From positions 903 to 64,902 of the forward strand of contig CAZQWS010000005.1 in assembly GCA_964597355.1 (NCBI GenBank): a stretch of DNA of 64,000 nucleotides, written 5' to 3'. How positions within the stretch are numbered: position 1 is the stretch's first letter; each line of letters opens with the position of its first letter. The notes beneath the pieces were generated by a model, which saw only the letters and a program-made list of their open reading frames with translations, was not told the DNA's origin and searched no databases. Positions 11,188 through 60,895 of the stretch are shown here, in pieces. The translations under genes and the position numbers were made by a program. The stretch comes from an uncultured Bdellovibrionales bacterium. GTDB lineage: Bacteria > Patescibacteriota > Minisyncoccia > Moranbacterales > UBA1568.

Positions 11188-12195
11188 TTGAGAGAGGGTT
11201 TTGTGGAAGCAAGACCCTCTCAATCATTTTTTGAAACGCTAAATTATTTTTCAAACAACAAATATATGTATGATGTAATCATCATTGGGGGAGGACCTGG
11301 AGGAGTAGCGGCTGGTGTATATACAGCCCGCAAACAAATGAAGACACTTTTTCTCACACAGGATTTTTTAAGTCAGTCGGTAGTATCAGCATCAATCGAA
11401 AACTGGATTGGTACGGTGACGGTGCCAGGCTATGAATTTGGCCAGATGCTTGAGAAGCATCTCCGCGCTCAGGAAAACATTGAGATTAAGACGGGGACGA
11501 AAGCTGCGAAAGTTTCTGAACGTGCCGAAGGTGGGTATGTGGTGGAAACAGAAGTCGGAGAAAAATTTGAAACCAAGACGGTCATCATTGCCTCTGGTGG
11601 ACGGCACCGCCATCTCGAAGTACCGGGTGAAGAAAAATTTGTTGGGAAGGGCGTGGTGTATTGTTCGACCTGTGATGCGCCATTTTTCCGTGACCGCAAA
11701 GTGGCTGTCGTGGGGAGTGGTAATTCGGCTCTTGAAGCGGTAGAAGATCTTATTCCGTACGCTAAAGAGATTGTACTCTTGGTTCGTTCTGGAGAATTAA
11801 AAGGGGACAAGGTTACTCAGGATAATATTTTTACTTCACCAAAAGTAAGCGTGCGTTATCATGTGACTACCCAATCGATTCTTGGTGAAAACAAAGTAGA
11901 GGGGATTGCGCTCATGAACACAGAGACAAATACGCCGGAAGAAATTGCTCTCGATGGTGTGTTCGTGGAAATTGGTATGCTCCCCAATACGGAATTCGTG
12001 AAGGATATAGTAGAGCTCAATGAAGGGGGAGAGATTGTGGTAGACGCACGGACTGCCAGCACCTCGAAGCCTGGTATCTTCGCGACAGGAGATGCGACAG
12101 ACCTTCCCTATAAGCAAAACAATATTTCCGCTGGCGTAGGCGTCACAGCAGCTCTCTCAGCTTATGATTTTATTCGCAAAGGCAAGGCAGAGTAG
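11188..12195 (+). CDS. trxB: thioredoxin-disulfide reductase
   Basis: FAD motif 'YDVIIIGGGPGGVAAGVY', redox-active 'CSTCDAPFF' (CxxC), NADPH motif 'VAVVGSGNSALE'. Probable true start ATG 11266 (MYDVIIIGGG); the 11188 TTG extension is doubtful. Confidence 0.85.
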   Translation: MREGFVEARPSQSFFETLNYFSNNKYMYDVIIIGGGPGGVAAGVYTARKQMKTLFLTQDFLSQSVVSASIENWIGTVTVPGYEFGQMLEKHLRAQENIEIKTGTKAAKVSERAEGGYVVETEVGEKFETKTVIIASGGRHRHLEVPGEEKFVGKGVVYCSTCDAPFFRDRKVAVVGSGNSALEAVEDLIPYAKEIVLLVRSGELKGDKVTQDNIFTSPKVSVRYHVTTQSILGENKVEGIALMNTETNTPEEIALDGVFVEIGMLPNTEFVKDIVELNEGGEIVVDARTASTSKPGIFATGDATDLPYKQNNISAGVGVTAALSAYDFIRKGKAE

Positions 12196-12211
12196 ATTAA
12201 TCGTCTTTACT

Positions 12212-12275
12212 ACTTGGAAGCCGAACTTCCAAGTAAGAATAGATGGTAAAAAGAGGTTTATCCAAGCCTCTTTCT
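12212..12275 (+). terminator. trxB downstream tandem hairpins (9-bp stem acttggaag/cttccaagt; second hairpin agagg..cctct followed by TTTCT)
   Basis: Inverted repeats read directly at 12212-12234 and 12251-12275 followed by a T-rich stretch. Confidence 0.55.
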
Positions 12276-12290
12276 CATGCCACAAATGAC

Positions 12291-12318
12291 TAGACAAAAT
12301 AGCAAAAAAGTGTATAAT
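12291..12318 (+). promoter_or_regulatory. promoter of DGR target gene 1 (-35 TAGACA, 16-nt spacer, extended -10 TGTATAAT)
   Basis: tagaca 12291-12296, tgtataat 12311-12318; homologous copies upstream of target 2 (13361-13389) and of ORF 37494 (37332-37360). Confidence 0.6.
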
Positions 12319-12470
12319 GTACTGTTCGTTAAAAATTCAGAGTTTTGCCAGAGCGAAGAGATTTTTACTTGGAGGCCGGATCCCCAAGAAGACCTCCAAG
12401 AAGGGTAGAGACTTCTTCACTCTGGCAGACTACTCGAATTTTCGAGAGGCCATGAGTAAAAGGAATTGTC
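12319..12470 (+). other. ~150-nt structured 5' leader of DGR target 1 (nested inverted repeats gccagagcgaagag.../...cttcactctggc and cttggaggcc.../gacctccaag)
   Basis: Long imperfect hairpins between the promoter and the AAGGA SD/ATG 12471; a homologous leader core (ccagagcg...cttcttc.ctctgg) occurs at 37386-37432. Confidence 0.5.
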
Positions 12471-13100
12471 ATGACACAGCGTGTCGCCGACGAAGTCATC
12501 TCACGTTTTGCACGTCAACAGCACGATTGGATGGGGCGTGTCCTCAAGGGATCGCTTGATCCAACCGAAGTGGCCCGGGTCGTGCAGGCCATTATCGATC
12601 GTGGTTTACGCTACCCACTGCTTTCGGAAAGGAAGCTCCTCAAGCCCGTCGCCACGGCGACCGCGGCCAAGGATCCGCCCTTCGTGAACGAGTTCTTCCA
12701 GAGCCGTCCCGGCCTCTACGTCTGGGACTCGTTCCGTGAACGCTTCGATCTCAAGGCATTATCCCAGTCGGTGGGCGGCCGTCCCTACGTCGCCTCTCTC
12801 TTGAAGTTGAACGCCTACGATCGTGACATTCGCCGGGAACTGCCGGAGAACAACCTCTCGGCCTTGGAAGACATCGCCGGCTTCATCGAGGCCCAGCCGA
12901 ATGGCAAGGAGGGCTTCCTTCTCACTAACGGTTACGCGAACATCTTCTACGTCGAAGGGCGTAACGGTGAAGTCTTCTCCGTGGATGTTTTCTGGTTCTC
13001 CGACCGCCGCCGGTGGAGCGTCCGCGACTGGAGGCTCGACGAGAATGGCTCGTGGAGTGCTGGCGACCAGGTTCTCTGCCCCGGCAACGCCGCACTCTGA
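12471..13100 (+). CDS. DGR target protein paralog 1 (variable C-terminal domain, VR1)
   Basis: 209 aa, ~60% GC vs ~48% background. Shares 'FQSRPGLYVWDSFRER...PYVASLLK.NAYDRDIRRELPEN.LS.LEDIAGFIEAQP.GK.GFLL.NGYAN.FYVEG.NGE' with the downstream paralog; its C-terminal ~115 nt align to the TR with mostly adenine-site differences. Confidence 0.8.
   Translation: MTQRVADEVISRFARQQHDWMGRVLKGSLDPTEVARVVQAIIDRGLRYPLLSERKLLKPVATATAAKDPPFVNEFFQSRPGLYVWDSFRERFDLKALSQSVGGRPYVASLLKLNAYDRDIRRELPENNLSALEDIAGFIEAQPNGKEGFLLTNGYANIFYVEGRNGEVFSVDVFWFSDRRRWSVRDWRLDENGSWSAGDQVLCPGNAAL
12972..13086 (+). repeat. VR1: variable repeat at the 3' end of target gene 1 (diverged from TR)
   Basis: Aligns codon-for-codon with TR 14504-14620; ~20 differences at TR adenines plus ~12 non-adenine differences. 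Confidence 0.6.
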
Positions 13101-13142
13101 CCCTTCAGTCCATTGGGCAAAGACCCTTGGATACTTAGTCCC

Positions 13143-13193
13143 TTAGACCCTTGGAAACCGCATCGCGGCTACCGGGGGTCTTTTTGTTTTGCT
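13143..13193 (+). repeat. 51-bp element ttagacccttggaaaccgcatcgcggctaccgggggtctttttgttttgct downstream of VR1 (identical copy downstream of VR2); hairpin plus T-run, candidate terminator/IMH-associated structure
   Basis: Exact 51-bp identity between 13143-13193 and 14224-14274; contains ccgc-atc-gcgg hairpin and gaccc/gggtc flanks, then TTTTTGTTTT; preceded by tandem GACCCTTGGA motifs. Confidence 0.6.
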
Positions 13194-13195
13194 CC

Positions 13196-13281
13196 CCTAC
13201 AAGCAGAACAATATTTCAGCCGGTGTAGGTGTGACCGCGGCGTTGTCAGCCTATGACTTTATCCGTAAAGGCAAAGGTTAG
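13196..13281 (+). pseudogene. duplicated 3' fragment of trxB (encodes '..PYKQNNISAGVGVTAALSAYDFIRKGKG*', no start)
   Basis: ~80% nt identity to trxB 12111-12195; followed by duplicated hairpin (13283-13303, compensatory changes preserve stem), terminator hairpin (13318-13346) and promoter. Confidence 0.8.
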
Positions 13282-13360
13282 ATTGGGAAGCCCGGCTTCC
13301 AAGTAAGAAGAGGTAGTAAAAAGAGGCTTGAGTAAGCCTCTTTTTCGTACCCCGTATGAC

Positions 13361-13389
13361 TAGACAAAAGTACCAAAAAGGTGTACAAT
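13361..13389 (+). promoter_or_regulatory. promoter of DGR target gene 2 (-35 TAGACA, 17-nt spacer, -10 TACAAT with upstream TG)
   Basis: Duplicate of the 12291-12318 promoter module. Confidence 0.55.
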
Positions 13390-13463
13390 TATAGGTTGCA
13401 GGTGAGAACTTGCTTCTGCCCCGATTCCCGGCATATGGGAATTACCTTGAAAAGGAGACTGCG

Positions 13464-14168
13464 ATGACGACTCAGTCGATCACGCAAGACCAGGAAAAGC
13501 AACTGAAGCGCTTCCTCGAAGACGCGTCCATAGCGGCGACCCGTTCGGCCCTTGCGCAGGTGTCCCTCGACAAAGAGGGCTCCCAGCAGGTCATCGAACG
13601 GGGCGACCAGCTCAAGGCCGAAATCGAACGCGCCACCGTCGCCATCCTGAAGAAGTTGAGTTCCCGCTATTCGGTCGTCGGTGAAACACGGCTCCTCAAG
13701 CCCGCCGCCGCCTCGACCGCTCGGGCCCGGACTAAGCCGTTCGACCCCTCCGAGTTCTTCCAGAACCGTCCCGGGCTTTACGTCTGGGATTCGTTCCGCG
13801 AGCGGCTCGACATCGAAAACCGCAAGCTCGTTCCGTCGGCTCCCGAACGTCCCTATGTGGCGTCCCTCCTGAAGTCGAATGCCTATGACCGAGACATCCG
13901 CCGGGAATTGCCCGAGAACCATCTCTCGACACTCGAAGACATCGCGGGCTTCATCGAAGCCCAGCCGGAAGGCAAGTCGGGGTTCCTCCTGAACAACGGC
14001 TACGCGAACAACTTCTACGTCGAAGGACACAACGGCGAAATCTTCGCCGTGCGTGTCCTCTGGTACTCGGACAACCTTGAGTGGGACGTCCGCGTTTGGT
14101 TCCTCGATGAGCGTGACTGGTGGCGCGCCGAGCGCCAGGTCGTCTGTCCCGGAAACGTGTCGCTCTGA
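13464..14168 (+). CDS. DGR target protein paralog 2 (variable C-terminal domain, VR2)
   Basis: ATG 13464 with AAGGAG SD (ORF track extends to TTG 13410); 234 aa, GC-rich, paralog of 12471-13100; last ~38 codons are the VR matching the TR. Confidence 0.85.
   Translation: MTTQSITQDQEKQLKRFLEDASIAATRSALAQVSLDKEGSQQVIERGDQLKAEIERATVAILKKLSSRYSVVGETRLLKPAAASTARARTKPFDPSEFFQNRPGLYVWDSFRERLDIENRKLVPSAPERPYVASLLKSNAYDRDIRRELPENHLSTLEDIAGFIEAQPEGKSGFLLNNGYANNFYVEGHNGEIFAVRVLWYSDNLEWDVRVWFLDERDWWRAERQVVCPGNVSL
14040..14153 (+). repeat. VR2: variable repeat at the 3' end of target gene 2
   Basis: 114-nt alignment to TR 14504-14617: 21 substitutions, every one at a TR adenine (aat>cgt, aac>ctc/tac/gac/cgc/ttc, aag>gag, gat>gtt, agg>tgg, cca>ccc), zero at C/G/T positions. 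Confidence 0.9.
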
Positions 14169-14223
14169 CGCTTCGGTCCCTTGGGTCTCTGATTTGTATT
14201 CTGACCCTTGGACCCTCAGTCTC

Positions 14224-14274
14224 TTAGACCCTTGGAAACCGCATCGCGGCTACCGGGGGTCTTTTTGTTTTGCT
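14224..14274 (+). repeat. second copy of the 51-bp post-VR hairpin/T-run element
   Basis: Identical to 13143-13193. Confidence 0.6.
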
Positions 14275-14503
14275 ACAGTAAAAGCGGTATGTTGAAAATC
14301 CCTTCCGGCTACGGCTGGCAGAGCAAGATGCTGGAATGAAAGCGGATGAGAGCCGGAGCAGATACCAACTTCTTCGGGAGAACGCTTTTGTTTCAAAAAA
14401 TATATTGCGTTGGTGTCTTGAGCTTGAGGACTTCGAGGTCCCGCATACGATACAGCTCTGAGAGTAGTCGAGGAGCAGTGGAACGGACGGCTCAAGGCAC
14501 GGA

Positions 14504-14620
14504 ATCTTCGCCGTGAATGTCAACTGGAACTCGGACAACCTTAAGTGGAACGTCAACGATTGGAACCTCGATGAGAATGACAGGTGGAACGCCAAGAACC
14601 AGGTCGTCTGTCCAGGCCAC
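14504..14620 (+). repeat. DGR template repeat (TR)
   Basis: Truncated copy of the target 3' end lacking the N-terminal gene body and start codon; encodes '...IFAVNVNWNSDNLKWNVNDWNLDENDRWNAKNQVVCPG' with 8 AAC + 2 AAT codons exactly at the positions that vary in VR1/VR2. Confidence 0.9.
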
Positions 14621-14638
14621 GCACAAAGTTTCTCTCGC

Positions 14639-14989
14639 CTATTTCGGCGGGAGTTTTGTTTCGAGGCCTTTCTTCCAACCGCCAAGCATCCGGCCTGTTT
14701 CGTTCAACTCCATTGAAAGAGTAGAATACTTCTTGTGATCAATGAGTTTATTTTCCCAACCAAGCTGAAGAAAAAACTTTATGATATCTACCTTTCCGAC
14801 GGTGGCTGTTAAATAGGCTATTTTTTGTTCTGATTTGGTATACTGAGCTCGAAAGATATACTCGAGAGCTTCAAGAAAAATTGCATCTACTTTACCGCCA
14901 AAAGTATAGCGATGGGTTTTGGGAATATGCGGAACACACTGAAGCCACAAATTATATGAAAGTTTTAACTTCTGAACCACTGGCAACAC
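14639..14989 (-). CDS. avd: DGR accessory variability determinant (Avd), four-helix-bundle / 23S rRNA-IVS protein family
   Basis: ~113-116 aa. The pattern 'PKTHRYTFGGKVDAIFLEALEYIF...KIAYLTATVGKVDIIKFFLQLGWE...ETGRMLGGWKKGLE' parallels Bordetella phage Avd ('PRKHGVAREMFLKCLLGQVELF...EVGRILGSWIARVNRK'). Likely start GTG 14980 preceded by AGGTG SD; it lies between TR and RT but on the opposite strand. Confidence 0.7.
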   Translation of the reverse strand: MLPVVQKLKLSYNLWLQCVPHIPKTHRYTFGGKVDAIFLEALEYIFRAQYTKSEQKIAYLTATVGKVDIIKFFLQLGWENKLIDHKKYSTLSMELNETGRMLGGWKKGLETKLPPK

Positions 14990-14993
14990 CTGC

Positions 14994-15002
14994 GGGGGGG
15001 GG
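14994..15002. repeat. G9/C9 homopolymeric tract between divergent avd and RT
   Basis: Nine consecutive G (14994-15002) ~5 nt upstream of the avd SD on the minus strand and inside the open N-terminal extension of the RT frame. Confidence 0.8.
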
Positions 15003-15076
15003 TATTAGAGGCATATCGAAAACGTAAAAAATTAGACATCGCTTACCATGATATCATTTCTCTCGACAACCTCCTC

Positions 15077-16048
15077 TTGGCTTGGCAATCCTTTGTGAAA
15101 GGAAAAAGACAAAAGAAAGACGTTCAGGAATTTGAACTTCATTTGATGGATAACCTGATAGATCTTCGCGAGTCGTTCAAAACCAAAACCTATACCCACG
15201 GTTCCTACCATGCCTTCAAAGTAAATGATCCAAAGCCGAGAGATATTCACAAAGCAAGGGTGAAAGATCGAGTTCTTCATCATCTTCTCTATCAAGCTCT
15301 CTCACTCTTCTTCTTCAAGCGCTTCATTCATGACTCTTATTCTTGCCAGGATGGCAAAGGCATTCACAAGGCTTTACTCAGGTTTGAAACTTTCTCAAGG
15401 AAAGTTTCCAAGAACCATACGAAACAGTGTTTTGTCTTGAAATGCGACATCCGCAAGTTTTTCGCGAGTATTGATCAGGCAATACTTCTCAAGATTCTCG
15501 AAGAGTGGATTGAAGACAAAGAGGTACTGTGGCTTCTCAAAAGAGTGATACAGAGCTTCTGGATCCCGGATCACCCGCCCGAACGTACCAGTTCGGTACG
15601 GGCGGGAGTCCGGGATGACACAAAGAGAGGATTACCCCTGGGCAATCTGACATCCCAGCTTCTGGTGAATATCTATCTGAATGAGTTTGACCAGTTTGTG
15701 AAGCATGTTCTTAAAGTACGGCATTATATCCGGTATGCCGATGACTTTGTAATCCTCTCGCACGACAAGAGTGAACTTCAAACACTACTTATCAAGCTTC
15801 AAACCTTTCTCAAGTTGAGGCTTAATCTTGACCTTCACCCGAACAAAGTCTCAATAGAGACTCTTGGAAGTGGAGTAGACTTCTTGGGTTGGGTGCATTT
15901 TCCTGATCACAGAGTATTACGAACGGTAACGAAGCGGAGGATGATGAAGAAGGTGAATCCGAAGAATATTGCTTCGTACTTGGGAATGCTTGATTGGGGA
16001 AATGGGTGGAAATTAAAACAATTGATAGAAGATTTGTTTGACTTCTAG
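15077..16048 (+). CDS. DGR reverse transcriptase
   Basis: RT motifs: 'LLAWQSFVKGKRQKKDVQEF' (DGR RT N-terminus), 'PKPRDIHKARVKDRVLHHLLY', motif 4 'LPLGNLTSQLLVNIYL' (DGR-specific [LIV]GxxxSQ) and motif 5 'RYADDFVIL' (YxDD). The frame stays open upstream to 14969 with RT-like residues ('LEAYRKRKKLDIAYHDIISLDNLLL') but no in-frame ATG/GTG; TTG 15077 is the track start. Confidence 0.9.
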   Translation: MAWQSFVKGKRQKKDVQEFELHLMDNLIDLRESFKTKTYTHGSYHAFKVNDPKPRDIHKARVKDRVLHHLLYQALSLFFFKRFIHDSYSCQDGKGIHKALLRFETFSRKVSKNHTKQCFVLKCDIRKFFASIDQAILLKILEEWIEDKEVLWLLKRVIQSFWIPDHPPERTSSVRAGVRDDTKRGLPLGNLTSQLLVNIYLNEFDQFVKHVLKVRHYIRYADDFVILSHDKSELQTLLIKLQTFLKLRLNLDLHPNKVSIETLGSGVDFLGWVHFPDHRVLRTVTKRRMMKKVNPKNIASYLGMLDWGNGWKLKQLIEDLFDF

Positions 16049-34767: not shown

Positions 34768-37278
34768 ATGGAAACGAGTGGGGGATGGGATTTGAACGTT
34801 GTTTTGGTGCCGCTTGCCTTTTTCTCGGGAGGGCTTGCTTTGGTTATGGGGCTCGTCTTGATTGTCCGGAGTTTTTTCCTTATGCGCTTTGAAGTGGCTC
34901 AATCACTCAATACTGATCTCGAGGTGGTGAAAGTGAGTCGGGTCAAAACTGATGAAACGAAGCCAAAAGGAGGAGAGGAATGGCGAGAAGAGATTAAGGG
35001 GATGGAGCAACTACTAACCTCTTTGGCTAATCTCAAGCGCAATGTTCCGTGGTGGCAAAAACTCCTCTTTACCTTGCCGCATCTTATTTTTGAAATCGCC
35101 AACCCCTCGTCCAGTGAGGAAATATTTTTTTACCTTTCAATTCCTAAGCGATTCAGAGAGAGTGTCGAGAAACAGATTCATAGTTTTTTCCCGCATGCCG
35201 TGATCGAAAAAGTACCTGAGTACACTATTTTCTCTCCAGCTGGGGAAACTGCCGTGTCGACGCTTCGGCTCAAAGAAAGTGCCGCTTTGCCACTAAAGAC
35301 CTACAAGACGCTCTCAGTTGACCCTCTGAATGAAATATCGAATGCGCTTTCTAAGCTCGAAACGGTGGCTGAGGGAGCTGCGATTCAGATTGTCCTTGCA
35401 CCTGCCCCAGCAGGTTGGCGTAAAACCAGTCGTTATATCGCTGAGAAGATGCAGGAGGGAAAACGCCTCAAAGACGCACGACCTGAATCAATAGCGGGAA
35501 AATTAGGAAAAGATGTATTAAAGAATACTGGTCGGGCGCTGTTGCAACAGAATCTTGGAAGCAAGCAGGAGGAAGAAAAAGTAGTGGCACTTACTCCTGA
35601 GGAACAGGAGCTAGTCAAAATAATTGATGCCAAAGGAAGTCAGGCAGCCTTTTCAGCTAATATCCGTTTGCTAGCTTCCGCCAAAACCAAAGAACGAGCC
35701 GAAGATATCTTGGCGCATATGGAGAATGCGTTTAGTCAGTTTGAAAACCCTGAAATCAATGCCTTTCGAGTCCAGCGCAAGCATCGAGACAAACAAACAG
35801 CCTATCACTATATCTTTCGTAATTTTGACCCAGAAGCGAGTATCCTCCTTTCGGTGGATGAACTCGCTAGTATCTTTCATTTCCCTATTTCGACGACCGA
35901 AACTCCCAAAATAAAATGGCTGAAAGCTGGAAGTGCTCCGCCCCCAGTCAATATTCCAAAAGATGGGATCCTCTTGGGCTATAACGAATACCGTGGAGTC
36001 AAATCTGAAGTACGGATTACTGAGAGTGACCGTCGTCGTCATATGTATGTAGTTGGGCAAACCGGTGTCGGTAAATCGAACTATCTCCAAGAAATGGCTA
36101 AGAAGGATGCCAAGAGCGGCAAGGGATTTTGCTTTATTGACCCTCATGGGGATGCGATCGAGGATATCTTGACCGCCATCCCCAAGGAGCGAGCTGAGGA
36201 TGTGATTGTCTTTGATCCGAGTGACACCGAACGGCCGATGGGTATCAACATGCTCGAATACGATTCTAAACATCCAGAACAAAAGACTTTCGTCATCAAC
36301 GAAATGATCGGCATCTTTGATCAACTTTATGATATGAAGACCACCGGAGGGCCGATGTTCGAACAGTATATGCGTAACGCCATGCTGCTTATCATGGAAG
36401 ATCCTGAAAGCGGCTCGACCCTAATGGAAATCCCCAAGGTCTTGGCGGATGAAGAATTCCGGCGCTACAAACTGACCAAGTGTACGAACCCGATCGTGCG
36501 GGATTTCTGGCTCAAGGAGGCGGAGAAGGCGGGTGGGGAAGCAGCACTCGCCAATATGGTACCGTACATTACTTCCAAGTTGACGGCGTTTATCAGTAAC
36601 GACATGATGCGGCCGATTATCGCGCAGCAAAAGAGCACGCTCAACTTTCGTGAAATCATGGACGGCGGTAAAATTGTTCTCATTAATCTTTCCAAGGGGA
36701 AAATCGGGGAAATCAATGCCCGACTTTTGGGGATGGTGATCGTGGGAAAAATCCTCATGGCAGCCCTCTCACGGGTTGATATACCAGAAGCAGAGCGTAA
36801 GGATTTCTACCTCTATCTGGATGAATTCCACAATGTTACGACGACCTCAATCGCTCAGATTCTTTCCGAAGCCAGAAAATATCGGCTCGTCCTTATCCTT
36901 GCGCATCAGTTTATTGCTCAGCTTAAGGAAGAAATTTCAAAGGCAGTGTTTGGTAATGTTGGATCGCTGACGGCGTTTCGCGTCGGACCGGAAGATGCGG
37001 AATTTCTTGAAAAACAATTCGCCCCGGTCTTCACCGCCCAAGATATCGTCAATGTTGATAACTATCAGTGTTTCGTTCGTCTCCTCATGAATAATGAACT
37101 CACTAAGCCTTTCAACATGAAAACCTATCCGCCAACGATCGGGGATCAGGAAGTAGCTAATGCTTTGAAAGAACTTTCACGTCTCCGTTTTGGTCGCGAT
37201 GCCACTATCGTGAATCGGGAAATCATGACTCGTATCCGTATGGCTGAAGCCACAAAACCTACACACTCACCTTTGTAG
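34768..37278 (+). CDS. TraD/TraG/VirD4-family type IV secretion coupling protein-like P-loop ATPase (N-terminal TM)
   Basis: N-terminal TM 'VVLVPLAFFSGGLALVMGLVLIV'; Walker A 'YVVGQTGVGKSNYL' followed by 'FIDPHGDA' (coupling-protein IDPKGD-like), Walker B 'LYLDEFHNV', C-terminal 'ARKYRLVLILAHQFIAQL' (TraG-D_C-like RKYG..Q..QL). Confidence 0.65.
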   Translation: METSGGWDLNVVLVPLAFFSGGLALVMGLVLIVRSFFLMRFEVAQSLNTDLEVVKVSRVKTDETKPKGGEEWREEIKGMEQLLTSLANLKRNVPWWQKLLFTLPHLIFEIANPSSSEEIFFYLSIPKRFRESVEKQIHSFFPHAVIEKVPEYTIFSPAGETAVSTLRLKESAALPLKTYKTLSVDPLNEISNALSKLETVAEGAAIQIVLAPAPAGWRKTSRYIAEKMQEGKRLKDARPESIAGKLGKDVLKNTGRALLQQNLGSKQEEEKVVALTPEEQELVKIIDAKGSQAAFSANIRLLASAKTKERAEDILAHMENAFSQFENPEINAFRVQRKHRDKQTAYHYIFRNFDPEASILLSVDELASIFHFPISTTETPKIKWLKAGSAPPPVNIPKDGILLGYNEYRGVKSEVRITESDRRRHMYVVGQTGVGKSNYLQEMAKKDAKSGKGFCFIDPHGDAIEDILTAIPKERAEDVIVFDPSDTERPMGINMLEYDSKHPEQKTFVINEMIGIFDQLYDMKTTGGPMFEQYMRNAMLLIMEDPESGSTLMEIPKVLADEEFRRYKLTKCTNPIVRDFWLKEAEKAGGEAALANMVPYITSKLTAFISNDMMRPIIAQQKSTLNFREIMDGGKIVLINLSKGKIGEINARLLGMVIVGKILMAALSRVDIPEAERKDFYLYLDEFHNVTTTSIAQILSEARKYRLVLILAHQFIAQLKEEISKAVFGNVGSLTAFRVGPEDAEFLEKQFAPVFTAQDIVNVDNYQCFVRLLMNNELTKPFNMKTYPPTIGDQEVANALKELSRLRFGRDATIVNREIMTRIRMAEATKPTHSPL

Positions 37279-37331: not shown

Positions 37332-37360
37332 TAGACAAATATAAAGAAATAGTGTAGAAT
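37332..37360 (+). promoter_or_regulatory. promoter (-35 TAGACA, 17 nt, extended -10 TGTAGAAT) homologous to the DGR target-1 promoter
   Basis: ~70% identity to 12291-12360 including downstream leader core. Confidence 0.55.
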
Positions 37361-37385
37361 ATAACGTCGTAACTTAATAAGTATT

Positions 37386-37432
37386 TACCAGAGCGCAGAG
37401 GCATTTTGGCGAGAGTCTTCTTCGCTCTGGTA
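37386..37432 (+). other. leader hairpin taccagagcg...cgctctggta (10-bp stem) homologous to target-1 leader
   Basis: Shares 'ccagagcg.agag...ttttgg...cttcttc.ctctgg' with 12344-12428. Confidence 0.5.
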
Positions 37433-37493
37433 AACCGCGATTCACCGAGTTCTGGAGCAGTGCTTCTTATGAAGCGTTCAACAAGGAGATCTC

Positions 37494-37931
37494 ATGATGA
37501 ATGATATCGTGTGTGTCCGCGAACGGAGCACTTGGCTCGAGATTGATTGGTTGGAGGAAATCCCTCCTTTCAAGATTTTCGGGTTTGCTATTTGGCCAGG
37601 GAGTAGCAAAAAGCGGGTCACTCGGACAGTCCGGCTCTATCCAAGGAATTTCGGACTCGACCCGCGGACGGCGACCCGCGAGCAAGTCATAGCCTGTGCC
37701 GAAAAAGAAGGCTATGAGTATTGTCCCACGAAGGTGGTGGAAGTTATCCGCAGCGCTGCCCTGGTGCAGCGGCGGGGATACCTGGTGTTTCCGTTGAGCG
37801 ATGGGACGCAGATCGTTCTCTTTGCTAATGGTAGTGGCGCCCAACTCTTCCTCGATGAGGATCTCACACCAACGACGATTGAGAATTCTCATGGTTGGTC
37901 GATCGTAATGGCTATCCCGGACAACGACTAA
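37494..37931 (+). CDS. hypothetical protein, 145 aa, GC-rich (~55%)
   Basis: ATG with AAGGAG SD; shares promoter/leader module with DGR target 1; no recognisable domain. Confidence 0.55.
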   Translation: MMNDIVCVRERSTWLEIDWLEEIPPFKIFGFAIWPGSSKKRVTRTVRLYPRNFGLDPRTATREQVIACAEKEGYEYCPTKVVEVIRSAALVQRRGYLVFPLSDGTQIVLFANGSGAQLFLDEDLTPTTIENSHGWSIVMAIPDND

Positions 37932-37969: not shown

Positions 37970-38005
37970 CCCGTGTGTAGCAATCGCTACACACGGGATC
38001 ATTTT
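37970..38005. terminator. bidirectional terminator hairpin cccgtgtgtagc-aatc-gctacacacggg + TTTTTG
   Basis: 12-bp perfect stem between convergent genes. Confidence 0.7.
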
Positions 38006-44861: not shown

Positions 44862-45354
44862 CTCTCTTCCTAGTTTATTGATTTAAATGTGAACGTACTG
44901 CTTGCGTTGAAGCCAGAATCGGGAGAGTACCCCCTATCTTTTGGTCCGGGGAACTCTTTCGACCCCCTTCGTTACCCATACTAGAAGGGAAAAAGAAGGG
45001 TGTCAATCTCGACAAAATCCTTTAAATGAGCCGTAATTTTGAGTTTTTATCCCTAGGGTGTTTCTTGAAGGTGGTAATGGAAAGATTTGGTAAGTAGGGT
45101 TTAATGAAGACAGTCAAAGAGGAAATATATGTTTGTCCAGTGGATGAAGCTCAATTGTTTGTTATAACAAAAAAGATCATAGATCCTTTGAGATACAAAA
45201 GTGAACAGCGTTTTTCTTGTGCAGAATTCTTTCGTAGCGGATAGTAATTTATTTTTTTTCACTAAACTATTGTTATAAAGTATGAGTGTGAGGTAGATCT
45301 TTCATATAAATGTAAAGTTTACTTTGAATGAGTGTTGACAAAACTTTTATTTGC

Positions 45355-45383
45355 TTTGCATTTTAAAAAAAGAGTGTATAATA
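45355..45383 (+). promoter_or_regulatory. promoter (-35 TTTGCA, 17 nt, extended -10 TGTATAAT) for the lysine-rich micro-ORF transcript
   Basis: Read directly; followed by a ~130-nt leader with three consecutive hairpins (gtgtgaag/cttcacac, acaaaac/gttttgt, ctctgta/tacagag). Confidence 0.45.
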
Positions 45384-45515
45384 AAAATACGTGTGAAGAA
45401 CTTCACACAAAACAAGATACAAAACAAAACTTTGTTTTGTAGTTAAATAGAAAAACAAATCGCGCTCTGTAAACATACAGAGGCGAAAACAAAAACTGGG
45501 AGGAGGTGACCTATT

Positions 45516-45584
45516 ATGGCAAAAAAGAAAAAGGCAGCAAAGAAGAAAGGCACCAAGAAGAAGGCTACTAAGAAGCGCCGATAG
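45516..45584 (+). CDS. 22-aa lysine-rich peptide MAKKKKAAKKKGTKKKATKKRR
   Basis: Very strong SD GGGAGGAGGTGA 8 nt upstream, immediately followed by a 9-bp-stem terminator (45611-45646); below the ORF-track length cutoff. Confidence 0.45.
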   Translation: MAKKKKAAKKKGTKKKATKKRR

Positions 45585-45610
45585 TTCTGGTGATTCTGTC
45601 TTCAGAAAGT

Positions 45611-51128: not shown

Positions 51129-51201
51129 GCCATCTTAGCTCAGTTGGTAGAGCAACGGTTTTGTAAACCGTGGGTCGTCGGTTCGAGCCCGACAGATGGC
51201 T
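51129..51201 (+). tRNA. tRNA-Thr (anticodon TGT)
   Basis: Cloverleaf folded by hand: acceptor gccatct/agatggc, D-arm gctc-agttggta-gagc, anticodon stem acggt/accgt loop tTTGTaa, T-arm gtcgg-ttcgagc-ccgac; no encoded CCA. Confidence 0.85.
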
Positions 51202-51222
51202 CTGGTAGTATGTGAACAATAT

Positions 51223-51305
51223 GGGTAGGTGGCCGAGTGGTTAAAGGCGGCAGACTGTAAATCTGCTCTCTCCGGAGTACGGGGGTTCGAATCCCTCCCT
51301 ACCCA
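51223..51305 (+). tRNA. tRNA-Tyr (anticodon GTA, long variable arm)
   Basis: Acceptor gggtagg/cctaccc, anticodon loop cTGTAaa (GTA), long variable arm, T-loop ttcgaat. Confidence 0.85.
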
Positions 51306-51415
51306 CAAAAGTTAAAGCTGTGCCCTTGTGGCACAAATTTAACTTTTTGAAGTACATGGAAGGGATGAAAAGTTTATGCCCCGCAGGGGTAAATCCCTTC
51401 CCACCCACAGTTTAT

Positions 51416-51488
51416 GCCGTTGTAGCTCAGTCGGTAGAGCAATTCCATGGTAAGGAATAGGTCACCAGTTCAAATCTGGTCAACGGCT
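51416..51488 (+). tRNA. tRNA-Thr (anticodon GGT)
   Basis: Acceptor gccgttg/caacggc, anticodon stem attcc/ggaat loop atGGTaa, T-arm accag-ttcaaat-ctggt. Confidence 0.85.
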
Positions 51489-51575
51489 CAAGATTGTTTT
51501 CGGACAGTTGACGGGAAGAAAGAACTCCCGTAGAGTAAACTGCGTACTCGTTAGAGGTAATTTTTACGTTTTGTT

Positions 51576-51737
51576 ATGGGTAAGATCAAGGAAAACATGG
51601 CCAAATTGAAGTGCTCGGTTTGTGGTCGCATCACGCACTACACCAAGCGTAACAAGAAGAAGGTGAAGGAAAAGCTGTCACTCAAAAAGTACTGCAAATT
51701 TTGCCAAAAAAGCAACCTTCACAATGAGTCGAAGTAA
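51576..51737 (+). CDS. rpmG: 50S ribosomal protein L33
   Basis: 53 aa 'MGKIKENMAKLKCSVCGRITHYTKRNKKKVKEKLSLKKYCKFCQKSNLHNESK' with the two CxxC zinc-ribbon pairs; below track cutoff; rpmG-tRNA-Trp linkage is common. Confidence 0.85.
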   Translation: MGKIKENMAKLKCSVCGRITHYTKRNKKKVKEKLSLKKYCKFCQKSNLHNESK

Positions 51738-51772
51738 GCCTTTAAACGGGCTTTTCTTCTTTTGACTCTTTT

Positions 51773-51843
51773 AGGGGCGTCGTATAGTGGTAGTACAACG
51801 GTCTCCAAAACCGTTAGTGAGGGTTCGATTCCTTCCGCCCCTG
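51773..51843 (+). tRNA. tRNA-Trp (anticodon CCA)
   Basis: Acceptor aggggcg/cgcccct, anticodon stem acggt/accgt loop ctCCAaa, T-arm ...gggttcgattcc.... Confidence 0.8.
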
Positions 51844-51903
51844 CAAAAGAGAAATGCTGGTGAGATTTTGGCTCTTTGATGTTTGCTTTTTGATTTTTCA
51901 AAA

Positions 51904-51975
51904 GGCCCCATCGTCTATCGGCTAGGACACTTGGTTCTCATCCAAGAAAGAGGGGTTCGATTCCCCTTGGGGCTA
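51904..51975 (+). tRNA. tRNA-Glu (anticodon CTC)
   Basis: Acceptor ggcccca/tggggct, D-region tcgtctatcggctaggacac typical of tRNA-Glu, anticodon loop ttCTCat, T-arm gaggggttcgattcccctt. Confidence 0.75.
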
Positions 51976-60162: not shown

Positions 60163-60292
60163 TGTTTAAGCCATTATCTAATATTGATTTTTTTGTTAAA
60201 AAGGTGTATAATATATAGTTTGGTAGAATTATCTCCCAAACGTGAGCAGTAGCTCATTCACAACTCACACCCCACTTTGAAGGAGAGTTTCT

Positions 60293-60895
60293 ATGGCACA
60301 CTATGCTGTCGGTTCGTTCAAGCCCAGTCGTAGCGGCAGCCCGTCTCAGTTTGTTTCGACGGACCTGCAACCGAAAGGGCCATTTGCCAAGCTGGATCTC
60401 AACCGCTTGAAGATCAAGCAGTCTCAGTTTGATTGGGTGCATCACCGGTTCCTCTTCGAACTTGAGGACTGGCGCTCGGCCAATCAGTCGGTTCAGTATG
60501 TAACGAAGCTTATTACTTCGCTTCGTGACGTCAGAGCAGAGCTCCACCAAGCGCTTAAAGGTGCAACTTGGGAGATGGTTCAGATGGAGTGCCTTCGTCG
60601 GAAGATCCAGATTGTCGGCGAGATCCTCAAGACGAAATACGGCTACTTCCGTCCCGAATACCACAGCGGACTCAATGCGTTTGGTCCGGGGCAAGACGTG
60701 GATCCATGGATCACTTTCGAACCTTGTCCTGTTTCCACCGAGAACCCCTATGGGGATGCGTGGATGGCCGTGTCGGAGCGTGAATATCTCTGCTGTGTGG
60801 ATGAGGCAGAGATCAAGCGGGCTCATGACGCCGGCATCGCCAATGGGGGTCTCGGCGAACTCCTTGCTGCCAAGATGTCCCAACAAGGGAAGTGA
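60293..60895 (+). CDS. hypothetical protein, 200 aa, GC-rich (~55%)
   Basis: Preceded by TTGATT-18-TGTATAAT promoter (60184-60213) and followed by terminator accgcg...cgcggt+T-run (60904-60950). Confidence 0.55.
   Translation: MAHYAVGSFKPSRSGSPSQFVSTDLQPKGPFAKLDLNRLKIKQSQFDWVHHRFLFELEDWRSANQSVQYVTKLITSLRDVRAELHQALKGATWEMVQMECLRRKIQIVGEILKTKYGYFRPEYHSGLNAFGPGQDVDPWITFEPCPVSTENPYGDAWMAVSEREYLCCVDEAEIKRAHDAGIANGGLGELLAAKMSQQGK

Follow-up and report, generated by a model that had tools for sequence, protein, structure and literature searches.

The diversity-generating retroelement and its target genes

The window, the whole 64-kb stretch of DNA that was analysed, has a G+C content of ~47% and is a bacterial chromosome segment that carries housekeeping genes and one diversity-generating retroelement (DGR). 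By the names of its homologs, it belongs to Candidatus Moranbacteria/Moraniibacteriota, within the candidate phyla radiation. Five tRNA genes are clustered at 51129-51975. The DGR is complete and features two target genes, T1 and T2, a template repeat (TR), bAvd, and a reverse transcriptase:

12471..13100, + strand: DGR target gene T1, 209 aa, variable region 12968-13089
13464-14168: DGR target gene T2, the second target of the window DGR
14500-14621, + strand: template repeat (TR)
14639-14989, - strand: bAvd
15077-16048, + strand: reverse transcriptase (RVT_1)

The variable regions VR1 (12968-13089) and VR2 (14036-14157) differ from the TR (14500-14621) mostly at TR adenines. T1, the coding sequence of which has a G+C content of 0.60 compared with 0.47 for the window, is a DGR target by its VR/TR match, by the adenine mismatches, and by the presence of RVT_1 and bAvd nearby. 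A run of nine G residues is located at 14995-15003, between the divergent avd and reverse-transcriptase genes.

T1 and T2 form a tandem duplication of ~1070 bp. Comparison of 12103-12310 with 13192-13380 reveals that the duplicated unit holds the 3'-terminal 83 nt of trxB together with its terminator and a promoter; a 3' remnant of trxB is found upstream of T2 because each repeat unit includes the trxB end. A partial second copy of trxB, 630 nt long, comes after T1 in the close relative L008, where T2, TR, Avd, and RT were not found within 10 kb. An 83-nt repeat (90% identical) that holds GACCCTTGGA repeats and a terminator-like hairpin follows both variable regions, at 13122-13204 and 14203-14285 of the window, and this repeat may be a post-VR element used in DGR homing.

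Two related leaders upstream of T1 and ORF145

A preliminary description of this DNA placed two related regions in front of T1 (12291-12470) and of a second gene, ORF145 (37332-37432), and both were found there; the second copy extends to 37493. The first copy is divided into the following parts:

12291..12318, + strand: predicted T1 promoter, -35 box TAGACA at 12291-12296, 16-nt spacer, -10 box TATAAT at 12313-12318 in a GTGTATAAT context
12319..12343, + strand: A/U-rich 5' segment, predicted transcript start near 12325
12344..12366, + strand: 5' arm of hairpin P1, TTTGCCAGAGCGAAGAGATTTTT, a purine-rich mimic of the post-P2 motif and Shine-Dalgarno (SD) sequence (anti-anti-SD)
12367..12406, + strand: apical extension of P1, 40 nt, with its own helix CTTGGAGG/CCTCCAAG
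12407..12429, + strand: 3' arm of P1, AGAGACTTCTTCACTCTGGCAGA, a pyrimidine-rich anti-SD element with two alternative partners
12430..12448, + strand: short hairpin P2, CTCGAA/TTCGAG
12449..12470, + strand: tail, with the post-P2 motif GCCATGAGTAA, the SD AAGGA at 12460-12464, and a spacer to the ATG at 12471

The second copy and its gene comprise:

37332..37360, + strand: predicted ORF145 promoter, TAGACA, 17-nt spacer, TAGAAT
37361..37383, + strand: 5' segment
37384..37405, + strand: P1 5' arm, TTTACCAGAGCGCAGAGGCATT
37406..37411, + strand: P1 loop, TTGGCG, without an apical extension
37412..37434, + strand: P1 3' arm, AGAGTCTTCTTCGCTCTGGTAAA, the anti-SD element
37435..37449, + strand: P2, CCGCG..CGAG, imperfect
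37450..37493, + strand: tail, with the motif TTCTGGAGCAG at 37450-37460, hairpin P3 (GCTTC/GAAGC) at 37462-37475, and the SD AAGGAGA at 37483-37489
37494..37931, + strand: ORF145, a 145-aa protein of uncharacterised function from a small, rare family
37970..38005, + strand: terminator-like hairpin and T-run that end the single-gene ORF145 unit, read directly from the sequence

ORF145 shows no similarity to T1 and T2. It does not behave as a DGR target, as its differences from a 91%-identical homolog are scattered and unclustered and the protein is not hypervariable. The structure model of ORF145 is confident (pLDDT 81), and no relative was detectable in the PDB. A gene for an 836-aa VirD4/TraG-like coupling ATPase (34768-37278) immediately precedes the ORF145 unit, an arrangement that is kept in L003-L005.

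Without the 40-nt apical insertion of T1 (12367-12406), 12291-12430 and 37332-37432 match at 76 of 108 columns, in agreement with the ~70% identity given earlier, while 300 shuffles yielded a mean of 59 matches and a maximum of 66. The conserved leader core that had been noticed is also real; the pattern CCAGAGCGNAGAG...TTCTNCNCTCTGG occurs twice in the window where 0 occurrences are expected. Both leaders fold into the long hairpin that had been proposed, with energies of -53.1 kcal/mol (z = -4.1) for T1 and -42 kcal/mol (z = -2.5) for ORF145.

The two copies were also thought to share one and the same promoter. The TAGACA box is indeed common to both, but the promoters are not identical, since T1 has N16-TATAAT and ORF145 has N17-TAGAAT. 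A promoter of the same type precedes T2, and that T2 shares the promoter without the leader is one of two features that the preliminary description missed, the other being a second conserved partner of the hairpin 3' arm:

13361..13463, + strand: TAGACA-N17-TACAAT promoter (13361-13389) and short leader before T2, with a mini-hairpin CCTT/AAGG over part of the SD

In the window TAGACA-N16/17-TAnAAT is found only before T1, T2, and ORF145. The GTGTAnAAT context of the -10 box is also present at 45374 and 60204, and it therefore appears to be a general strong-promoter form in this organism. Relatives with the same leader use TTGACT, TGGACA, or TCGACA as the -35 box. The promoter as a specific shared feature is thus upheld only in part, as the -35 box differs in the relatives and the GTGTATAAT context is used by further genes.

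The short leader of T2 (13395-13463) features a hairpin, UUCCCGGC..GGGAA, and a CCUU:AAGG mini-hairpin over the SD; the P1 hairpin is absent. It is homologous to 9860-9946 of L031, which lies before a T-family gene in the complete Moraniibacteriota genome CP064994, and, as judged by this homology, the T2/L031 short leader is a second leader type for DGR targets. In L017 the complete P1 leader precedes a gene of the T2 type, and leaders have therefore been exchanged among target genes in evolution.

Distribution of the leader in related genomes

An exact-pattern scan of 185,579 species genomes identified eight loci, seven of which are from Moraniibacteriota-type MAGs; some of these are labelled 'Bdellovibrionales' and are probably Moranbacteria-like, as judged by the genes they share. 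The eighth locus, L020 (Planctomicrobium), is a chance pattern match, and both L020 and another chance match, L022, were rejected by the covariance model R1. The same pattern scan gave 0 matches in viral contigs, and in metagenome contigs it gave one real match, identical to L013, plus one G+C-rich chance match. In all seven real loci a GTGTAYAAT -10 context, which is GTGTATAAT in six and GTGTACAAT in L019, precedes the hairpin by 29-38 nt, and the hairpin is followed by a G+C-rich ORF of 140-234 aa with a coding-sequence G+C content of 0.56-0.60; the G+C content of the locus is 0.47-0.52 in six of the seven.

The covariance model, a check that had been suggested, scored the two window copies at 94.9 and 102.7 bits with E-values of 1e-16 to 1e-18, and 14 further homologs were obtained from relatives. 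A search of the whole 64-kb window with filters off found no copy besides these two. Model R1 found no copy in L031-L033. By eye, L033 holds a diverged version of the leader and L031 the different short leader described above. Alignment A5, on which the comparisons below are based, comprises 16 distinct leaders from related organisms, which is a small sample, with L033 added separately, and the surroundings of the relatives were read as 10-kb flanks of related contigs. In the aligned leaders the -10 box is 27-30 nt upstream of P1 in 14 of 16 cases, and the sequence upstream of the -35 box is not conserved. Conservation spans the interval from the -10 box to the start codon, so that the similarity is not confined to a sigma70 promoter consensus. 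Chance similarity plus a shared promoter consensus draws on the use of the GTGTATAAT context by other window genes; with a core pattern found 2 times against 0 expected, 76 matches against a shuffled maximum of 66, E-values of 1e-16 to 1e-18, and 14 further homologs, it is refuted and retains a negligible probability.

Orthologs of T1 with 92% and 65-66% identity keep the leader, and in L008 and L011 they also follow trxB. The apical helix of these leaders has a wholly different sequence and is still a helix. Between the window and the 92%-identical L008 there are 3 hairpin substitutions, all of which are in stems and each of which keeps or restores pairing, and the sole other hairpin change is an indel in the loop. 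The close homologs of ORF145 (91% and 74% identity) have upstream regions that can be aligned over the whole interval between the -10 box and the start codon, and the hairpin loop varies more than any other part of these leaders. Conservation of the leader equals or exceeds that of the gene behind it, with 83% identity vs 78% for the coding sequence at aligned positions. A full HMMER search revealed six distant ORF145 homologs with 28-37% identity, and the leader is present in all three of those examined (L023, L027, and L028), where it carries compensatory changes in an otherwise invariant lower stem.

BLASTP studies determined that the ORFs behind the leader fall into several families without connection, and Pfam gave no match to the other leader-linked proteins. 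A template repeat and Avd/RT adjoin the genes of the L014/L016 family, whose two members are distinguished by the variable region alone. The L017 ORF is of the T2 type. For the L013/L018 family, 309 homologs were counted in many lineages of the candidate phyla radiation (CPR), and its C-terminus alternates between invariant positions and positions occupied by 11-13 residue types; this alternation is the DGR variable-region signature. The L015 and L019 ORFs are tentatively similar. The leader therefore precedes at least three unrelated DGR-target families (T1/T2, L014/L016, and L013/L018), and ORF145 is the only non-diversified gene that carries it. As the leader is kept across diverged homologs, it appears to be an old, stable companion of genes for DGR variable proteins and of the ORF145 family.

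The L013-type target (~3609-4226 of L013; 4581-5198 of L021, minus strand) has the variable-region signature at residues 176-196. The MAG copy of L013 contains Ns inside the variable region, as is expected from assembly collapse over a hypervariable stretch. The L013-type gene stands alone between dcd and a methyltransferase gene, far from any reverse transcriptase.

Horizontally acquired cargo had been offered as one explanation for the shared module. This was not supported, as the T1 and ORF145 orthologs are syntenic in relatives and each leader groups with its own orthologs and not with the second copy of its genome. A related proposal is that a mobile promoter cassette, a MITE-like repeat, or gene conversion spread the module, in which case the similarity would result from copying and not from function. 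Such copying would account for the same module standing before unrelated genes and for the L012 copy, which adjoins an rve transposase. However, there are only two copies in 64 kb, both in the same register between the -10 box and the start codon, and they are nearer to their orthologs (about 83% of aligned positions) than to each other (70% of columns). The module is also retained by genes whose proteins are 28-43% identical, and neither target-site duplications nor conserved ends were found. Copying is for these reasons considered extremely improbable. A MITE- or REP-type repeat was likewise rejected, since the 64 kb hold two copies and each related locus holds one, all of them in the sense orientation and between the -10 box and the start codon.

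Conserved structure of P1 and P2

The leaders are 130-150 nt long and share a common order that consists of the -10 box, an A/U-rich segment of ~20-25 nt, P1, an optional apical helix, P2, a purine motif, the SD, and the ATG. The A/U-rich 5' segment is single-stranded in most copies and is conserved as (A)TAnTGTTGTTTAAAAATCCA in T-type leaders. The purine motif after P2 is GGCU.RGAGCRC, and the ORF145 type adds the hairpin P3 before the SD. P1 consists of 21-23 bp, with 21 consensus pairs, and 93.7% of the alignment cells are paired, compared with 40-57% when the partner is slid. Six pairs are changed on both sides, and none of 500 shuffles reaches the observed values. The P1 apex varies from 2 to 42 nt and its sequence is unrelated between copies; eight leaders have an apical helix, each with a different sequence, and the rest have a short loop only. 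P2 follows directly after P1 and is built from at least eight different helix sequences across the family, and ORF145-type leaders have a conserved P2 loop, ATTCAC. With 16 distinct leaders, compensatory changes in P1, and P2 and apical helices that stay helical when replaced, the earlier suggestion of a cis-regulatory RNA or co-regulation is supported, and it is close to certain, as judged from these alignments, that the element is a conserved structured cis-regulatory leader.

The structure could in principle act in the DNA, as a palindromic operator for a dimeric repressor or as a cruciform or recombination site that marks target cassettes. The lower 16 bp of the P1 palindrome are nearly invariant on both arms among the Moranbacteria copies, as for sequence-specific recognition, and the T1 cassette is located inside a tandem duplication with the trxB 3' end. 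This invariance is, however, also explained by a triple constraint on the 5' arm, the 3' arm, and the SD. The half-sites are 2 to 42 nt apart, which is ill-suited to a dimeric operator, and one-strand conservation continues through P2, the motif, and the SD. P1 features conserved G-U pairs at columns 65/123, 68/120, and 70/118 that would be C-A mismatches on the opposite strand, and pairs of this kind work in sense-strand RNA only, which points to an RNA and not to a DNA palindrome. Model R1 scores the 16 leaders at 66-120 bits in the sense orientation vs 22-47 bits in antisense. Furthermore, no integrase or transposase is consistently nearby, and the DNA upstream of the -35 box is unconserved. 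A DNA-level element is accordingly regarded as very unlikely.

Other RNA assignments were also considered. A scan of the whole window with Rfam 15 at gathering thresholds returned the five tRNAs only and no match to a leader, and E-value scans of both leaders gave best scores of 11-17 bits against thresholds of 41-117. An intrinsic terminator or attenuator was rejected because P1 is followed directly by P2 (CTCAC.., CCGCG.., and similar) and a T-run is absent from all 16 leaders. A link to the DGR template RNA was rejected as well; the look-alikes upstream of the TR (14313, 14368, and 14395) are chance-level 7-9-mers on both strands.

A second partner for the P1 3' arm

The motif after P2 and the SD resemble the P1 5' arm, and the P1 3' arm is therefore complementary to them as well. 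In folds computed without the 5' arm, the 3' arm is paired to the tail in every one of the 16 leaders. In this alternative fold GCUCUGG pairs with the motif, enclosing P2, and UUCUUC pairs with GGAGA of the SD. The motif is paired in 16 of 16 leaders and the SD in 14 of 16, where the SD partners were taken from minimum-energy folds and not from alignment columns, a procedure that favours finding pairs. P2 is located exactly between the two alternative strands in every copy. In an unfitted MAFFT alignment the helix between the 3' arm and the motif is 82% paired vs 32-47% when slid, and three of its pairs are compensated. Several changes in the 3' arm are accompanied by a matching change in the tail but by none in the 5' arm; they are found at columns 126, 129, and 131 and, in L028, at 133-134. 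T1 and L003 show G to A in this way, L023 shows U to C, and L027 and L028 likewise show U to C.

The leader of the T1 homolog in L033 (3545-3690; 43% identity) features a different lower stem (GUAGUCAUAGCC/GGCUAUGACUAC). The tail of this leader again resembles the 5' arm of the same leader, and in a fold without that arm UUUCCU is paired with AAGGAGA. The covariance model is blind to L033, and the family is therefore probably wider than sequence searches show.

The effect on the ribosome binding site was calculated by blocking the 5' arm, upon which the mean probability of an unpaired SD falls from 0.48 to 0.22; a drop occurs in 13 of 16 leaders, and SD exposure is unchanged in the other 3. 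P1 is favoured over the alternative by 4-32 kcal/mol. The 5' arm, the 3' arm, and the SD region are constrained together and the SD is fixed by the ribosome, which would explain why the lower stem is invariant among close relatives. The leader thus holds two mutually exclusive helices that share one strand, both of which are evolutionarily supported and one of which contains the SD.

The main alternative to a switch is that P1 belongs to a static structured 5' UTR, where it stabilises the mRNA or is processed by RNase III, and that the complementarity of the 3' arm to the tail is incidental, arising from purine/pyrimidine bias or as a relic of an internal duplication. The likeness of the 5' arm and the tail could indeed be partly a relic of an old internal duplication. 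P1 is long, near-perfect, and very stable, with its 4-32 kcal/mol lead over any alternative, and neither a ligand pocket nor a trigger was found. In addition, the per-leader pairing of the 3' arm with the tail is only modestly better than that of a shuffled arm (p about 0.005-0.67), a weak result that is obtained because pyrimidine-rich arms tend to pair with purine-rich tails. An incidental complementarity does not predict that changes in the 3' arm are compensated by the tail at positions left uncompensated by the 5' arm, that the alternative helix is far better paired than its slid versions, that P2 fits exactly between the alternative strands in every copy, or that L033 rebuilds all three partners in new sequence. 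A static UTR is on balance thought to be unlikely, though it keeps a real share of the probability.

Proposed mechanism

The favoured reading, with a probability a little above even, is that the leader acts in cis as a translational switch with anti-anti-SD, anti-SD, and SD strands. The covariation of both helices, the conserved architecture, and the link of the leader to DGR targets and ORF145 are shown here; promoter use, the transcript start, and the switching and its direction are predicted from sequence. A strong sigma-70-type promoter would start the transcript ~20 nt upstream of P1. The P1 3' arm (..UUCUUCGCUCUGG..) would be able to pair either with the 5' arm or with the CUAGAGC-like motif and the SD GGAGA after P2. 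With P1 formed, the SD would be free and the gene ON. With the 5' arm removed or occupied, the 3' arm would close over the motif and the SD, P2 would be enclosed, and the gene would be OFF.

P1 is transcribed first and is much more stable, and the default state would therefore be ON. It follows that the regulated step would be the removal or masking of the 5' arm. Given the 4-32 kcal/mol in favour of P1, the OFF fold could not form at equilibrium and would need an active trigger. The trigger might be a nuclease that processes the A/U-rich 5' segment, RNase III cutting P1, or a protein or RNA that acts in trans; no trigger or ligand pocket was found in the leaders.

One speculative candidate is ORF145 itself, which might be a trans-acting RNA-binding protein that recognises the nearly invariant P1 stem or its 5' arm, autoregulates its own mRNA by way of the leader there, and sets the translation of all DGR-diversified proteins of the cell. 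This would fit with ORF145 being the only non-diversified gene with the leader, with the leader being kept to 28-37% identity, and with the rarity of the family and the lack of a PDB relative. The proposal is nevertheless improbable as it stands. If it were true, it would imply a dedicated post-transcriptional regulon for hypervariable proteins in a CPR bacterium.

Comparison with known regulatory RNAs

Translational riboswitch platforms such as the thiM TPP riboswitch feature anti-anti-SD, anti-SD, and SD strands. The leader resembles a thiM-type platform in that a middle pyrimidine-rich strand pairs with either an upstream decoy or the ribosome-binding site, within a 5' UTR directly before the gene. 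Unlike the thiM-type riboswitch, the leader has no aptamer, and the sole possible site for one, the P1 apex, is variable or absent. It also lacks the multi-helix junction with conserved unpaired bases of riboswitches, and no Rfam riboswitch model matches. A metabolite riboswitch is not indicated, as no conserved aptamer core is present across the leaders, which consist of P1, the optional apical helix, and P2 only.

The mRNAs of the hok family undergo processing-triggered refolding via the fbi, tac, ucb, and dcb elements. As in hok, long-range alternative pairings would set the exposure of the SD and the nucleolytic loss of one partner would flip the fold, and hok-like processing is the most plausible kind of trigger for the leader because P1 is so stable. 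The direction differs; hok is processed at the 3' end, which is activating, whereas the leader would lose its 5' arm, with repression predicted. Furthermore, neither a toxin gene nor a gene for an antisense RNA accompanies the leader, and its sequence is not similar to that of hok.

The ermC and cat genes are regulated by leader-peptide translational attenuation, in which one of the alternative hairpins buries a downstream SD. The leaders described here likewise feature alternative hairpins, one of which would hide the SD, but they have no conserved upstream ORF. Leader-peptide attenuation was rejected on this basis, as there is no shared closed ORF and most of the leaders are without any ORF.

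In RNA thermometers of the ROSE and fourU types the SD pairs with an upstream pyrimidine-rich strand. A weak Rfam match to the Avashort thermometer scored 11.9 bits against a threshold of 88. The short T2/L031 leader resembles the simple thermometer form, and the thermometer feature may apply there. The P1 leader is unlike a thermometer because a stronger helix holds the anti-SD and leaves the SD unsequestered in its predicted ground state; in full-length folds it is P1 that holds the anti-SD strand.

In the Bordetella phage BPP-1 DGR, the IMH and a hairpin/cruciform 3' of the variable region act in cDNA homing. Like these elements, the leader is a conserved hairpin tied to DGR target genes. 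In contrast, it is located in the 5' UTR, with ~600 nt between it and the variable region downstream, it is also found before the undiversified ORF145, and it has no similarity or complementarity to the TR region.

On the favoured reading, the leader represents a previously undescribed RNA family whose kind of regulation is known. Nothing relevant on a DGR-target leader or UTR was found in the literature, and the words promoter, UTR, and leader are absent from two large DGR surveys by text search. To our knowledge very little is known about the expression of DGR variable proteins, and the regulatory RNAs of CPR bacteria are barely described. A leader that is common to at least three unrelated DGR-target families suggests that these share post-transcriptional control, together with an uncharacterised small protein. 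The covariance model provides a handle for finding this regulon, including DGR targets that are remote from a reverse transcriptase. The three-partner design is unusually clear, and it could be tested in vitro without culturing the organism.

Other leaders in the window

Two further genes with a similar -10 context have leaders of their own. At 60180-60295 of the window, a AAAGGTGTATAATATATAG -10 context precedes a 200-aa ORF (60293-60895) that has no Pfam match. The leader of this ORF contains AUCUCC upstream of a AAGGAGAG SD, and it may be another SD-occluding leader. At 45335-45600, a TTGACA/GTGTATAAT promoter is followed by a long A-rich leader, a lysine-rich ORF of 22 codons (MAKKKKAAKKKGTKKKATKKRR), and then a terminator.
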